Shown here piece after piece: positions 40,251-48,864 of a stretch of DNA of 64,000 nucleotides. The notes beneath the pieces are model-generated. The model saw nothing but the letters and a program-made list of their open reading frames with translations, searched no databases and was not told where the DNA came from. The DNA comes from an uncultured bacterium (GTDB taxonomy: Bacteria > Patescibacteriota > Minisyncoccia > UBA6257 > 2-01-FULL-56-20). A program made the position numbers and the translations under genes. Each line of letters begins with the position of its first letter. The first letter of the stretch is position 1. The stretch is taken from contig CAWHOC010000005.1 of the NCBI GenBank assembly GCA_963830935.1, forward strand, positions 1,839 through 65,838, written 5' to 3'.

Positions 40251-43200
40251 CTAGTTGGTAAACCAGTGATGTTCGTGGCTAGGAACCGGGAGCGCGATGG
40301 ACGGGCTGAGGCGAAGCTGATGCTCGTGCCAGTGCGTCGCCATCGCTGCCAAGTCACAGCCCGTCAAGGAGGATCTGGTAGCTGCCCGTGCTGCCACCTG
40401 GTGCTGCCGAATTGAGCGCCGGTCCGGGGCGAGTAGGTCTTCACGAGCAAGGTCTTCGAAGAGCTGGACGGGATGACCCACTGGTGTGTTGACTCGGCAC
40501 CATAGTTGAATGTCGCCGTGATCCGTGCCAGTCAGCGTCGTCGAAGCCAAAGAGCACTCGACGGAGCCGAGGCATCATAGAGGCCAAGTTTCTCGTCGTG
40601 CTCGTCGGTGCGACCAACGATCCTGCCGTCTCCAAGGTGCACTGATATCACCTGTCGGGTTCATGTTGCCACTGCCTGCCGTGAAGGTGAATTCACCAAT
40701 GGTGTTACCAACAGCCAGGAGAGCTGTTCGGCGTTGACCATCCGGTCGTACCGGCGACATTCAACGTCGTCTGGTAGATCGTGAAGAGGTTACCCATACC
40801 ACTTGAGAGGGAAACGTACGTCGTCGTCGCGTTGGTCGCGTTGGTGTACTGGTAGCTCTGCAAGTCATACGCGTGCGTTCCGCCTGATGTCGCATACGGG
40901 TATGCATTCGTATCCGCCACCAAGTTCACGTACGTCGTGCTGTTCACAGGAACCGAGAGACCGGACAAGTTGAAGGTCAACACGCCGCTCTGCTCGCTCG
41001 CCGTGCTCAACACGTTTCCGCTCGTATCCGTCAACCGATAGTTGAAGAGATCCGAAGCATTGCCCTGTGGTCGAGGTGATTCGTCGTGGTCGCAGCGTCG
41101 ATGATCGTTACCTGCGTCAATGTCTCGCTGCCGTTATTATCAGCAGCAAACTGGTATTGAGCCACGTTCACGCCCGGAACATTCATGCCAAGCTATGAGG
41201 CCTGCGACGTGCCTGCCGAGAGCGATCCGGTCAAGGTGCCTCCCGTGTTGAAGGCGAGATCCTGACCCGGAACCGGAGTGGCAAGCGAGATCGCGTTGCC
41301 CGCCTGGGTTGACGCATTCACTGCATAGAGATCCGTCGCGCCGCCGCGGTCGTGGTCGTGCTCGCATTCGAGCTGATGTTTGCATAAACATCAAGCGTTA
41401 CGGAGCCGTTCGCGGCGATCGAGATCGGCGCGTTGCTGTTGAAGCTGTAGACGCCCGTGCTCGCGACCGTTGCATAGGTCTGGCCGAGCTGCGTGCTGCC
41501 ATCCATCACTTCAAGGTTGGTCAACCAGCTCGGGTACGCAGCGAGAACCGTGCTCGTTACCTGGATGGTAACGCCGGTCAAATTGACCGGGTTAACCTGT
41601 CCGGCAGTGAGCGTGTACGATCCGATCTTCACCTGCTGTGCGCCAGCCGAAGCCGACACCGGGGTACCCAAGCCATAGTTCTCGTTCACAACAAGATTCG
41701 TGCTTTGAGGCAAGAATGTGAAGGGTGTTGCCCGGAACCAGAAGATACTCGGCCCGGACCGGTCAATACGTCGTGTAGCTCTGCGCGGCAGTGCACCGGT
41801 CGTACCGTCAAACGTCACCTGCACAGAACCCGTGGAGGTCGCATTGATATCACCGTAGACCGTCAAGACGCGGGTCGTGTTGGCCGGGATGATGTAGTTC
41901 AAGTTGCCAGTGCCTTCAGGGACAGCTGTAGTGCCAGGTCGCGTTGACCGTGGTGCCGATCTGGGCGCCCTGATCGTCAATGACGCGGAAGTTGTTGATC
42001 GTCTGAGCGACGGTCGGCGTGATAGTGAAGTTCATTTGAGTGAACTTGATGCTGTCGCCGGAAGCCAAGACGTCAAACTTCGCGAGCACCTGGTTGGTGT
42101 TCCCTGCCACCACATTGGTGGTCGGGCTCGCCGGATCCCTGGATACTACGACGCCGCCGTTGTTGATCTGAACGTTGGAGAAGGTAACCGGGAAGCCTCC
42201 ATTGTTAAGAACGTTCTGGATGCTTGCGCCGATGCCGACTCCATACGTGGTGTCAACCGCCTGAATGTCAGACGACTGCTGTATGGAGAACTGGAACGTG
42301 CGGTTTACGCCGCCAGTGATGTCCGCATAGAGCGACAACACCGCCGATTGGCCGGAGGTCAACATGAGCGGCGCGCCGGAAAGGTCGAACGTCGCGATAT
42401 TGTTGCTGCCAAGCGAGGAAAGCGTCGCGCCAAGCTGGGTCGAACCATCCATCAGTTTGATGTTCTGGAGATAGCTCGGCGTTACGCTTCCGATATTCGT
42501 GAAGGTCAACGCGGTCACCTTGACCGGGTTGTTGCCGGCCTGAACCGTTACCTGACCGACGAGATCATTCAACTGGCCCGCATTACACCGTTGTTAAGCG
42601 ATGACGTCGCGCTCGTGATATTAAGCGTCGCCAAGTTATTGACCGATGCAATCGTGAACTGGGCGCTGTTCAACGGGAAGTTGCCCGAGAACGTGCCGCC
42701 GGTTACGTTAGCCGCGGAAGCCAAGCCGATCTGGAAGATGTGGCCTGAGTTCGACGCAGCCTGCGATCCGGTCTCTCCGCCATTGTTGACATCAACCGTG
42801 ACGGTGACGACCATCGTGGAATTCGCCGGGACCGTAAAGAGTCCTGCGCCATTCGAGAAGGTGATCGCGCCATTGTTGAAGCCGAGGTTTGACGCCAACT
42901 TGGTCGCGCCACTGTAGAGGTAGACGTTGTTCAAGTCGGAATCCTGCGAAAGTCCTGAACGGGTCAAGACCAAGTTCGTGACGGTGACGGGTGTCGCGCC
43001 AGCCGTGAAGTCAAGCTTCAGGACCGGAGTGTTCGACCGCGCCTGCCGCTACGTTGACCGAACCCGGGGTCTGCGTGGATCGACGGAGCGATCGCGACAA
43101 CGGAGCGCTGAGCCCTGTCGCGAAGCACCGTTACGTCCGTGAACCGTGGTCACCGTGGTCGTGTACCCGTGCTCATCGAATTGATGAAAGCGCGGGTCTT

Positions 43201-43596
43201 AGGACCAAAGTAACCAACCGAAGGGGTGATGCCGTTCGCTGCCTGGAATTTTCCGAGCGCTGCTTGCGTCAGCGCGCCGAAGTATTCGGTCGGAGTGGCG
43301 AGACCGCCGTGAGATATCCTTGTTGAATCAAAAACTTCTGGAGGGCCGTGACTGCGCGCCTGTGGAACCAACGGTGAGGTCGCTGGTAAAGTCATAGGTC
43401 GTGCGCCGACCGAGGGCCGCCAGAAGCATTCAATTGGACTCTGGAGTGTCTGGATCTGGGCGAGCAAAGCCGCGATCTGAGCCTGAAGGCTCGACGTGGT
43501 CTGTGCGCTTGCCACAGGTACCAGCGCAGCTGCTCCTACCATCCACAATACTGTGGTGGCGGTGAGTGCCGCTGAAACCAATTTTTTAGAATTCAT
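40251..43596 (-). pseudogene. large surface-layer-like protein (signal peptide, coiled coil, PG-binding-like segment, repeated beta-sandwich modules), at least 8 frame breaks
   Basis: N-terminus MNSKKLVSAALTATTVLWMVGAAALVPVASAQ...LQAQIAALLAQIQTLQ. The fragment GALTQAALGKFQAANGITPSVGYFGPKTRAFIN is present. Repeated modules (MDGSTQLG...SVTLDVYANIS) are spread over ORFs 42569..42973, 41916..42572, 41318..41980 and 40705..41034. The 3' limit is uncertain. Confidence 0.6.
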
Positions 43597-43822
43597 TTTT
43601 ATTTAATTTATCGATTTAATTATTGGTATCGACCTGTTCGCCCGTTATGGGCACTTTCAGCCGTCGACCTTTCCGTGCACCAAATCACGTTTTTATTTTT
43701 TGTTGTTCAGGACCGTTTCCGGCACTTCACTCTATTCGCTCGAGCGGCCGCCTCGTGAGGGAAAGCGACGACCGATCAAATAGAAGAGAGTGGCGAAAAC
43801 GGGGTTGGTATCGTATAAAAGA

Positions 43823-43843
43823 AAAAACTCGCTTTTGGCGAGG
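43823..43843 (-). terminator. rho-independent terminator
   Basis: The minus strand reads CCTCGCC-aaaa-GCGAG followed by TTTTTT. Confidence 0.55.
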
Positions 43844-44037
43844 CTGAAAATGAACAAACAAGAAATTCGACCATAAAAAGTCTCCTCTCCTGCCTGCTGC
43901 GTGCGGTTCAGCCTCACACCGAACCTGTTACTATTATACCCTTATGCTACGTTTGCTGCCGCGGAAAAGGTGTGGAAAAGTATCCAACACTCCCCTCTCT
44001 GATGGCACATAGATAGAACGTCCCGCCGGGCGAAAGG

Positions 44038-44710
44038 TTACCCCGCCTCCGGCATCTCGGCCATCACGTTCGCGCGGTAGAAAACCGACGGCCCGGCATT
44101 GCCGATCCGCTCGATAAGGCCCTGCTCAAGGAGCGTCTGGAGATCGTAGCGGATGGTCCGCTCGCTCGTATTCGGCAAAACATCCTGTATTTCCTTCAAC
44201 CGGCAATTGCCGGATTGCCGGATTCGCTCCAGTATCATATTTTGCCGGATTGCCGAATCGTTTGCCGATTGCCGGATTGCCGGATTCGCGCTCAAGCGTC
44301 GCTGCGGGCATCGTCATAGAAACCATGGCGGGCGCCACCTCTGCCGAATGCTCGGCAATCTCCGGCTTGGAGAATATTTCCGCAACGCTGACCTCGTCCG
44401 TCTTGACCGCCGCCTTCCGCTCCACTATTGCTGCATCAAGCGCGTAGATCTCCCGCATCATCACTTCCACGTTGGGGCTGCCGATCATGCCCACGTCTCC
44501 CCCGAACTTGACGAGACATTCCGTCACGCGGAGCGGGCGTTCTGTGGCGGCATAATCCTCCGCCGCCGCGGCGGCGAGGAGCGCCGTGCCGGACGCCCGG
44601 AGCGATTCGGCAAAGTCCTTTTCCTGCATCCGCTCCGCCAAACGGAATACTGCGTAGACGACCTCGTATGTTTTCGTGAGGATAAAGCGCTCTTTGCCGG
44701 TCTCTTTCAT
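44038..44710 (-). CDS. regulator with a C-terminal DeoR-type winged-helix HTH; frame broken inside an 8-nt tandem repeat at 44271-44286
   Basis: ORF 44126..44746 holds the N-terminal helical domain, with start MKETGKERF at 44710. ORF 44038..44295 holds ILERIRQSGNCRLKEIQDVLPNTSERTIRYDLQTLLEQGLIERIG. The junction lies in ATCCGGCA repeats that encode NPAIRQ. Confidence 0.65.
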
Positions 44711-44711
44711 A

Positions 44712-44746
44712 TGCCGGATTATAATCCGGCAATCCGGCAATTGCAA
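44712..44746 (-). promoter_or_regulatory. promoter TTGCAA-17-TATAAT whose spacer and -10 are built from the TTGCCGGA octamer; 20-bp perfect palindrome over the -10
   Basis: The minus strand reads TTGCAATTGCCGGATTGCCGGATTATAATCCGGCATATG. The palindrome TGCCGGATTATAATCCGGCA is at 44712-44731. TATAAT lies 7 nt before the ATG. Confidence 0.6.
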
Positions 44747-44749
44747 GGT

Positions 44750-45307
44750 TTAATGGTGCTGGGGAGGAAGCGGATGCTCTTTTGCGTAATCATCGCGAAC
44801 CATCCAGGATGCGATCTGGAAAATAAGCGTAAGTGATTCATCTTCGTGATTCACCACATAGTCCTTCACTCGATCCATAATTGGATCGTTCCGAAATGAA
44901 CCGATTGCTAGCTCTGCTTCTTTCTCGTAATCGTAGAGTGTTCGCAGACGCAGTGATTCCATGTGTTTGAAAATTCTTTGCCGGATTGCCGGATAGATCT
45001 CATCAAATCCAGAATCTTTAAGCAACTCCTTTCCTTTCTCGCTTGGGGTAGTCGGACTATTTCTTATCTGATACATCGTGTGCGATGAAAGTGTTGTCGC
45101 GTGTGCCGCGAGAAGTTCCCCCTGTTCCTTCAAAACACCTCTCATCTCTTTAAACTCTGTCTTCGTCTCGACCTTGAACTCCGTCATCTCAACAATAAAA
45201 CTACTCAATCGCTCATCAATGCGTATGATAAGTTCCCGCGTGTTGCCCAAAAGCAACGTGGCAATCCAGTTCCCAACCTTTGTGAACCTTGATAGATTTT
45301 GATCCAT
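44750..45307 (-). CDS. hypothetical protein
   Basis: ORF 44750..45352 with likely start MDQNLSRF at 45307. AT-richer than its surroundings. Contains one ATCCGGCA dimer at 44977-44995. Confidence 0.45.
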   Translation of the reverse strand: MDQNLSRFTKVGNWIATLLLGNTRELIIRIDERLSSFIVEMTEFKVETKTEFKEMRGVLKEQGELLAAHATTLSSHTMYQIRNSPTTPSEKGKELLKDSGFDEIYPAIRQRIFKHMESLRLRTLYDYEKEAELAIGSFRNDPIMDRVKDYVVNHEDESLTLIFQIASWMVRDDYAKEHPLPPQHH

Positions 45308-48694: not shown

Positions 48695-48864
48695 TTCTGG
48701 ATTTAATTTTATTTCTGATAATACGCCGCAGGAGGTTAAAAAGTTCTTAACTAAATTATACCTTTAATACCGTACCTTGCGCCGATATCTATCAATTATA
48801 GCCGGAAAACGGTCATTGTCAATCTCAAGGGGAGATTGCTAATGATAGTGCCTCCGGCAAGATG

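Follow-up and report, generated by a model that had tools for sequence, protein, structure and literature searches.

A repeated octamer in the promoter and coding sequence of a winged-helix gene of Paceibacteria: a candidate autoregulatory operator

Why should one eight-base word fill the promoter of a bacterial gene for a DNA-binding protein and then return several times inside the gene itself? The question is raised by a 64,000-nucleotide (nt) stretch of an uncultured member of the Patescibacteriota (GenBank contig CAWHOC010000005.1, positions 1,839 to 65,838; hereafter the window), where a gene on the minus strand, encoding a protein with a winged helix-turn-helix (HTH) domain, carries the octamer ATCCGGCA on both sides of its start codon. 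From the sequence comparisons described below we consider it likely, at roughly two chances in three, that the octamer is the half-site of the winged-helix domain encoded by this gene and that the product is a local auto-repressor, acting through its promoter and through auxiliary operators within its own coding sequence.

Exact copies of the octamer occur 15 times in the window, against a mean of 3.65 and a maximum of 9 in shuffled sequence, and 10 of them lie within 44208-44994: three in the promoter, five in the gene and two in the upstream neighbouring gene. Two one-mismatch copies in the gene (44250-44257; the adjoining ATCGGCAA unit) bring the total to 12 between 44199 and 44993. An earlier reading of the bare sequence (the sequence-only reading) had counted twelve octamers in about 800 base pairs (bp), and we reproduce that count as 10 exact and two near copies; its seven in-gene octamers are five exact and two with one mismatch, and its two in the neighbour are an exact pair at 44978-44993. 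At up to one mismatch, octamer density is 19.8 per kilobase (kb) at 44190-45000 and 1.8/kb in the remaining window. The 16-mer made of two tandem octamers is found four times exactly and once with one mismatch, all inside the same ~800-bp stretch, against an expectation of 0.14 for the window. The tandem tracts are short, at 2.1-2.4 units per tract.

The promoter of the regulator gene is laid out as follows.

44741-44746, minus strand: -35 hexamer TTGCAA, read in the sequence, found by a promoter scan and kept in orthologues.
44724-44740, minus strand: 17-nt spacer TTGCCGGATTGCCGGAT, which is TTGCCGGA TTGCCGGA T, two tandem octamers; the proposed primary operator.
44718-44723, minus strand: -10 hexamer TATAAT, from the sequence, the orthologue comparison and the promoter scan.
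44711-44718, minus strand: inverted copy matching at 7 of 8 positions, TCCGGCAt on the gene strand, which completes a palindrome at 44712-44731.
44694-44701, minus strand: 7/8 copy aCCGGCAA at codons 4-6 (T-G-K), 9 nt past the ATG.

A consensus promoter scan picks TTGCAA-17-TATAAT, with 10 of 12 matches. These are the hexamers of the sequence-only reading, which had given the promoter as TTGCAA-spacer-TATAAT-CCGGCAT-ATG with a spacer of two octamers, and on both points it was right. The hexamers are of the ordinary sigma-70 type and the octamer pair fills the 17-nt spacer between them, so the site lies over the core elements of the regulator's own promoter. CCGGCAT joins the -10 box to the ATG (44710-44708, minus strand). 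Only 7 nt separate the two and a Shine-Dalgarno sequence does not fit; because the 7-8 nt from -10 to ATG leave no room for a ribosome-binding site, the regulator mRNA is probably leaderless.

To see what is conserved, we scanned one genome per species and recovered 22 orthologous loci (numbered with an L below) at 32-82% protein identity. With up to two mismatches allowed, 16 of the 22 have the tandem pair TTGCCGGATTGCCGGA shortly before the gene, at protein identities down to ~35%, and the pair occupies the -35/-10 spacer in every locus where both hexamers are readable. Within the 90 nt before the start, cTTGCAA-TTGCCGGATTGCCGGAT-TATAAT-N7/8-ATG is nearly unchanged in L002-L010 and L012; recognisable versions, such as TTGACT-TTGCCGGATTGCCGGA-TATACT, are found in L016-L019, L021 and L022, and the DNA farther upstream of the pair is unrelated between loci. 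Synteny is partly kept, in the order ClpB, membrane protein, variable protein of ~180 amino acids (aa), regulator and secreted peptidoglycan (PG)-binding protein. The 20-bp palindrome that the sequence-only reading had placed across the -10 box (44712-44731, TGCCGGATTATAATCCGGCA) is perfect in the window, however, its downstream arm is complete only there, in L002, in L013 and in the near-identical L144, with L012 one base off. Since most orthologues vary in this arm, what is conserved is the direct pair of octamers in the spacer and not the palindrome. Past the start codon, the CGGCAA core at codons 4-6, with Gly always GGC, recurs in nearly every orthologue; L008, L010, L012, L017 and L022 have the exact octamer there. 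A variant, TTGCAGGA, makes up both spacer copies in L007 (L001:5965-5990) and only the second copy in L145, and L007 has it again where its gene encodes NCRM. It seems that position 5 tolerates change, or that copies exchange sequence among themselves. The core of the predicted half-site is nnCGGCAA / TTGCCGnn.

The pair is all but lacking in ~380 kb of flanking DNA. On both strands, octamer density is 23/kb in the 60 bp before the start codon, 6.7/kb in the gene body and 1.5/kb from -400 to -61, over a background of 0.14/kb, measured on 378 kb that flank the gene in the window and in 20 distinct orthologous loci. Only three pairs at up to two mismatches fall outside the gene, its promoter region and the window's upstream neighbour in all DNA examined, and the two stray pairs elsewhere in the window lie in coding-like DNA without promoter context. 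Neither the window nor the flanks of the 22 genomes, taken to ±10 kb, yielded another promoter with the pair, and the pair is essentially confined to the regulator gene in ~440 kb of Paceibacteria DNA. The sequence-only reading had asked whether the octamer is a general genomic repeat and whether orthologous promoters keep it; it is not such a repeat, and the pair is kept even beside proteins of 35-40% identity, as expected for an autoregulated repressor. Confinement to one promoter argues for a locally encoded factor. A metagenome scan for the 16-mer returned at least 120 stretches and was uninformative about a regulon: the matches listed are nearly all chance occurrences in unrelated taxa, mostly coding for x-A-G-L-P-E/D, and L046 and L105 are the only orthologues among them. 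The 16-mer was not found in the literature searched, and nothing relevant was found there on Patescibacteria regulators.

The copies inside the gene were examined by comparing the coding sequences of the orthologues. In the window they are placed as follows.

44269-44284, minus strand: in-gene pair 1, TCCGGCAATCCGGCAA on the gene strand, encoding (E/N)PAIRQ in the disordered linker.
44242-44257, minus strand: in-gene pair 2, TTCGGCAATCCGGCAA, encoding SAIRQ at the start of HTH helix 1.
44199-44222, minus strand: in-gene pair 3 with an inverted copy, TCCGGCAATCCGGCAATTGCCGGt, encoding IRQSGNCR.
44171-44178, minus strand: 7/8 forward copy TTGCCGAA, encoding L-P-N.

Pair 1 reads aCCGGCAATCCGGCAA in orthologues, pair 2 has CGG for its Arg in 18 of 20 orthologues and CAA for its Gln in 19 of 20, and pair 3 is found in nearly every orthologue. 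Within pair 3 and its inverted copy, ATCCGGCAATCCGGCAATTGC (44202-44222) is the exact 21-nt reverse complement of the promoter core GCAATTGCCGGATTGCCGGAT. Orthologues with LPD or LPE carry an exact TTGCCGGA in place of the L-P-N copy (13 such octamers), and the Pro codon of LPD is CCG in 18 of 19, with an entropy of 0.30 bits. The three pairs (44199-44284) are set 27 nt, or 9 aa, apart as PAIRQSAND / SAIRQNMIL / ERIRQSGNC, which suggests an old triplication. We also considered an antisense or internal promoter at the in-gene site and rejected it, since no -10-like hexamer is conserved there.

To ask whether the proteins alone explain these copies, we held the proteins of 20 orthologous genes fixed and redrew their synonymous codons according to the codon usage of each locus. 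We observed 95 octamers, where 2000 runs gave 8.2 on average and never more than 17. Codon entropy in the 20 sequences is 0-0.29 bits at the six codons from R to C of IRQSGNC (CGG CAA TCC GGC AAT TGC), and 0.57 and 0.29 bits at the R and Q of the (A)IRQ nine codons earlier; apart from the Pro of LPD, it is 0.83-2.39 bits at all other invariant residues, including the recognition helix SERTIRYDLQ. The octamers encode SGN/SGK (35), IRQ (29), LPD/E (13), N/DPA (8), xAGx (8) and NCRM (2). They are thus read in three frames and in both orientations, and also at variable positions in the non-conserved linker; the use of three frames means that the octamer is not a peptide repeat. We conclude that the in-gene copies are under selection at the nucleotide level, at synonymous sites, and the conservation of the cluster spans ~80% to ~32% protein identity. 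The sequence-only reading had remarked on the operator word being reused as a coding repeat, and the resampling and the codon entropies confirm and strengthen that remark. The invariant Cys169 sits in the TGC of the palindromic core, and its conservation may in part be a DNA constraint.

Taken as a mechanism, these data suggest the following. The octamer would be a DNA half-site recognised by the encoded winged-helix domain. The primary operator would be the two tandem octamers in the -35/-10 spacer, overlapping the transcription start, followed closely, at -8 and +9, by one or two inverted copies; protein bound there would exclude RNA polymerase, giving negative autoregulation. The second cluster, 5-8 copies lying 430-540 bp farther on where the gene encodes the linker and the first helix of the DNA-binding domain, would supply auxiliary operators, through which the same oligomer could bridge promoter and gene body by looping, raise the local concentration of repressor, or block elongation. 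Occasional upstream octamers could be further sites. The autoregulatory operator of the sequence-only reading thus finds support in locality and in the orthologous promoters, and the invariance of octamer and recognition helix alike, the DeoR-type HTH and the predicted domain architecture also speak for it; that the protein binds the octamer, that binding represses, that in-gene and promoter sites cooperate and that the N-terminal part of the protein oligomerises is what we infer.

Several observations weigh against this mechanism. For winged-helix domains, a spacing of 8 bp between adjacent half-sites is unusually tight. In 5 of the 22 loci (L011, L013, L014/L015, L020 and L023) the promoter copies are degenerate with the in-gene pair kept, and L019 has promoter copies but not one exact in-gene octamer. 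The distance from promoter to in-gene copies is ~500-670 bp with no conserved helical phase, although this is neutral on looping. The recognition helix is invariant across orthologues, as is the octamer, and so there is no covariation of helix and operator to exploit. Finally, a second target promoter was not found in the window or the ±10 kb flanks of the 22 genomes, so the link from factor to site is drawn from locality and conservation.

What kind of protein would bind here? The sequence-only reading had described a single HTH gene; in the window the gene is in fact split over two frames by one base.

44126-44710, minus strand: frame-A open reading frame (ORF), 194 aa, identical to P0001; N-terminal four-helix bundle, linker and an out-of-frame tail after residue 148.
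44038-44295, minus strand: frame-B ORF, 85 aa, DeoR-type winged HTH.
44284, minus strand: extra T relative to orthologues, turning GAA-CCG-GCA (E-P-A) into GAAT-CCGGCA, by comparison with protein P0002 and orthologous DNA.

The two ORFs overlap in the repeat region. Frame B matches Pfam PF08220 at E = 4.5e-10 (39.6 bits, cut-off 21), a match that is also precomputed on nearly all full-length homologues; the 194-aa N-terminal ORF matches no Pfam or NCBIfam family at E <= 0.1, PF05635 included. Homologues, which come from metagenome-assembled genomes of Candidatus Paceibacterota/Parcubacteria, are undivided proteins of ~215-260 aa in which the N-terminal domain runs in frame into a C-terminal HTH. 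A first search gave 118 matches and a profile search of a large protein collection 523 clusters; the best 120 of these 523 contain no divergent relative with a changed recognition helix. The protein is DeoR-like in its HTH, yet it is not a member of the DeoR/GlpR family, since its HTH is C-terminal where that family has it at the N-terminus, and a DeoRC domain is missing: PF00455 was not found in window ORFs or homologues. NCBIfam DeoR equivalogs align only over their first ~50 positions, far below cut-offs.

An AlphaFold2 (AF2) model of the intact orthologue P0002, built with 105 homologues, has a mean predicted local distance difference test score (pLDDT) of 86. It contains a four-helix bundle at residues 4-105 (pLDDT ~98 over residues 10-100), a disordered linker at ~115-148 and a winged helix at 149-215 of 223, with RIRQSGNC in helix 1 of the latter. 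In a Foldseek comparison with PDB, the bundle is closest to 2gsc_A (E = 9e-4, target template-modelling score 0.79, root-mean-square deviation 1.6 Å over 105 columns), followed by 2rld of the S23/23S-IVS family and Avd of a diversity-generating retroelement (DGR), 8ub7_E, at 13-16% identity; the C-terminal part matches assorted MarR, HxlR and ArsR winged helices. We therefore predict an Avd/23S-IVS-like four-helix fold for the N-terminal domain. A PDB sequence search with the family profile gave only DARPin and designed-repeat matches with no significant stretch, which we treated as a compositional artefact of Ala-rich helices. As a speculation from the model, an Avd-like bundle with a flexible linker could form an oligomer with several independently placed winged helices, and such an oligomer would fit arrays of close half-sites in either orientation. 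Avd of 8ub7_E, 2gsc and 2rld assemble as pentamers. We entertain, as a doubtful extension, a multivalent and possibly pentameric repressor whose arms occupy the promoter and in-gene arrays at once, with protein and site locked together. If this were true, part of the operator would lie in the invariant IRQSGNC codons and neither protein nor site could drift across the class Paceibacteria; the locus would be a self-referential dual code for regulation and protein, and the first transcription factor-operator pair defined for candidate-phyla-radiation bacteria.

The extra T44284 both breaks the frame and creates a perfect octamer pair; P0002 is nearly identical and intact, and the database record P0001 is the truncated 194-aa product. 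We regard the frameshift as probably an assembly error, because the window assembly is indel-rich. Compared with the 94%-identical L144 there are 58 gap openings in 3.5 kb, and the surface-protein gene of the window (40671-43596, minus strand) is in at least six frame segments, with an L002 orthologue open for more than 999 codons; this gene is either decayed or assembled with many indel errors. Other traceable truncated homologues are in long-read-style assemblies with further indels. Programmed +1 ribosomal frameshifting at GAA-U-CCG was rejected, as there is no slippery or stall context and orthologues are without the extra base. L144 (1501-2025; European Nucleotide Archive (ENA) ERZ25039540 contig_10826), from the window's species, has ~8 extra nt in the linker, with a third octamer-like unit (AAACCGGC AGAACCGGC AATCCGGCAA) and two further CCGGCA-like words, and is frameshifted at the same pair as the window through a different change.

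Other explanations for the octamers have to be weighed against autorepression. The one that survives best, and still an unlikely one, is that the site belongs to another binder, a nucleoid-associated or global factor, or is a spacer element for a special sigma factor, with no part for the regulator's product. Conservation of a spacer does not by itself identify the factor that binds it, and here protein and site are linked by deduction. A global factor, however, is hard to reconcile with a pair essentially limited to one gene in the ~440 kb examined, and a special sigma factor with hexamers of the ordinary sigma-70 type. In addition, the regulator is the sole gene that always accompanies the site, whereas the upstream neighbour varies.

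A constraint at the level of RNA is, in our estimate, quite unlikely. In-gene UCCGGCAA copies might form mRNA structure, such as a CCGGCAAUUGCCGG hairpin, or pair with UUGCCGGAUUGCCGGA in read-through transcripts from upstream, as a means of controlling translation or stability. An RNA element would be expected to show synonymous constraint just as well, and promoter and in-gene copies always point in opposite directions, with perfect complementarity across 21 nt. Against this, the promoter copies lie exactly in the -35/-10 spacer, which is untranscribed from the regulator promoter, and loci with another upstream gene, or with none, retain the arrangement. The scatter of further copies over varying positions and both orientations is also a better fit to several protein sites than to a single helix.

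We give very little weight to the tandem units being a contingency tract, in which phase variation toggles a full-length and a split regulator. Adding or losing an 8-nt unit would shift the reading frame, the window has its +1 T at the first pair where P0002, from another sample, is intact, and the ~8 extra nt of L144 form a third unit at that same pair. Yet only two or three units stand in tandem, far below known slippage tracts, and the frameshifts in both indel-rich assemblies, window and L144, are probably errors. Truncated homologues are, moreover, detectable only with a mostly intact N-terminal domain, which biases their breakpoints toward the linker. Very improbable also is an invertible on/off switch, with the 21-nt inverted repeats at the promoter core and ~520 bp inside the gene as its recombination sites. 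The perfect repeat does flank the -10 box and the 5′ part of the gene, an anatomy used to call invertons, but every examined orthologous assembly that spans both copies shows the same orientation, and the 15 genes called around L001 include no recombinase. Traceable truncated homologues are explained by indels and not by inversion junctions, and the additional octamers outside the two repeats are not needed for inversion. The weakest alternative, that only the promoter copies are regulatory and the in-gene ones are the DNA shadow of a PAIRQ/SAIRQ/RIRQ peptide repeat plus codon bias, can point to the conserved peptide EPAIRQSANDSAIRQxxILERIRQSGNCR with its 9-aa (27-nt) period and to RIRQSGNC being part of winged-helix helix 1, but it is strongly disfavoured by the resampling, by CGG and CAA being used in 19/20 and 20/20 cases where they make up ~20% of Arg and ~10-45% of Gln codons, and by octamers in other frames, in both orientations and at variable linker positions, so we hold its probability to be minute.

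Autorepression through promoter and in-gene sites remains the reading we prefer, and the surroundings of the gene add some observations of their own. Upstream, the neighbouring gene has a pair that was listed above with the cluster.

44978-44993, minus strand: exact octamer pair in the upstream neighbour, encoding YPAIRQ, 283 nt before the regulator ATG.

This pair is common to the window and the 94%-identical L144; the L004 orthologue has YPQLRE in its place (TAT CCA CAA TTA AGA GAA) and no pair. Because it is shared with L144 but absent from L004, the pair is a recent, lineage-specific gain. Other loci have extra octamer copies of their own within 300 bp upstream. The 185-aa protein encoded by this neighbour (44750-45307, minus strand) is assigned to no family, with a weak match to DUF2357 at E = 0.014; its N-terminus, MDQNLSRFTKVGNWIATLLLGNTRELI, is conserved, its C-terminal half differs by locus and the gene is absent in several loci. 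Farther upstream, the clpB promoter is a perfect consensus, TTGACA-16-TATAAT (12 of 12; 48795-48822, minus strand). A single octamer ~30 nt upstream of that promoter (48855-48862) was set aside as a probable chance occurrence. A recurrent single octamer 2.2-2.9 kb upstream of the regulator ATG, which is inside clpB in the window, was set aside as a coincidence; by our reading it reflects the conserved ClpB peptide FLPDKAID.

Downstream, the 440-nt interval that separates the regulator from the next gene is better conserved than the proteins, at 77-92% nucleotide identity where the regulators are 58-82% identical, and two putative RNA elements fall here. The first is the ~215-nt 5′ leader of the gene for the secreted PG_binding_1/surface protein (43597-43810, minus strand), with equivalents in L002-L014. 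The RNAalifold consensus from 14 loci has 37 pairs, and 12 of these show compensatory changes. It comprises a long stem in which CCCCGUUUUCG..CUAUUUG pairs with CGAAUAGAG..CCGGAAACGG, followed by a GGUCGAC-hairpin-GGUCGAU domain. Rfam had no match at the locus, in the window and downstream region, at the gathering threshold or at E <= 10. The leader looks like an undescribed cis-regulatory RNA, a candidate riboswitch-like element. The second, upstream of the leader at ~43822-43935 on the minus strand, has a TATAAT, then the invariant hairpin AGGUUCGGUGUGAGGCUGAACC, then a GGUCGA motif and then an intrinsic terminator, CAGCCUCGCCAAAAGCGAG-U7 (43842-43828, minus strand). Since UUCAGCCUC, on the terminator's 5′ side, complements the hairpin loop GAGGCUGAA, the element may be an antiterminator, an attenuator or a small RNA. 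A leader peptide between hairpin and terminator is unlikely because the intervening ATG is not conserved.

To our knowledge almost nothing is known of transcriptional control in bacteria of the candidate phyla radiation, which cannot be grown alone. The factor-site pair proposed here, from a family of at least 523 protein clusters, is testable in vitro or in E. coli. It also offers a clean case of overlapping codes, in that the same 21 nt are a promoter core and, reversed, codons of the gene's own DNA-binding domain. For annotation, the label "DeoR family" misleads for an architecture with a C-terminal HTH, and the split gene of the window is not to be taken literally.

An operator in the promoter of a regulator is ordinary; a multi-copy cluster inside the gene, under synonymous selection, is not, and the uncharacterised domain architecture and a bacterial group with essentially no known regulatory biology are further unusual points. 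The closest precedents for operators in coding sequence are E. coli PurR, whose gene has its operators past the promoter, one of them within the purR coding sequence, lacO2, which lies in lacZ, and galOI in galE. In these systems an operator duplicated in downstream coding sequence acts with a promoter-proximal site, and for PurR the gene is its own. Unlike PurR, the present locus has 5-8 in-gene copies and not one, within the DNA encoding the linker and the first helix of the DNA-binding domain, and the copies are in three frames with synonymous sites frozen across a class-level clade; their role as operators is predicted. E. coli DeoR is an oligomeric repressor that loops DNA between multiple operators, each of 16 bp in two abutting 8-bp halves. 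The likeness extends to the DeoR-type HTH (PF08220), the 8-bp halves and the several separated sites at one locus, and in orthologues encoding NCRM, TCCGGCAA-TTGCCGGA forms a 16-bp palindrome. In contrast to DeoR, the HTH here is C-terminal, a four-helix bundle stands at the N-terminus, the DeoRC sugar-phosphate domain is absent and the promoter sites are direct repeats. The met-boxes of MetJ are likewise tandem 8-bp operator units, two to five in a row, that overlap a promoter, each palindromic box being bound by a ribbon-helix-helix dimer; the unit described here is asymmetric and the domain a winged helix. Finally, the predicted fold of residues 4-105 superposes on the 23S-rRNA-IVS/S23 proteins and DGR Avd, yet here the bundle, known as a monomer model, is fused to a DNA-binding domain and carries no sequence-level family match.

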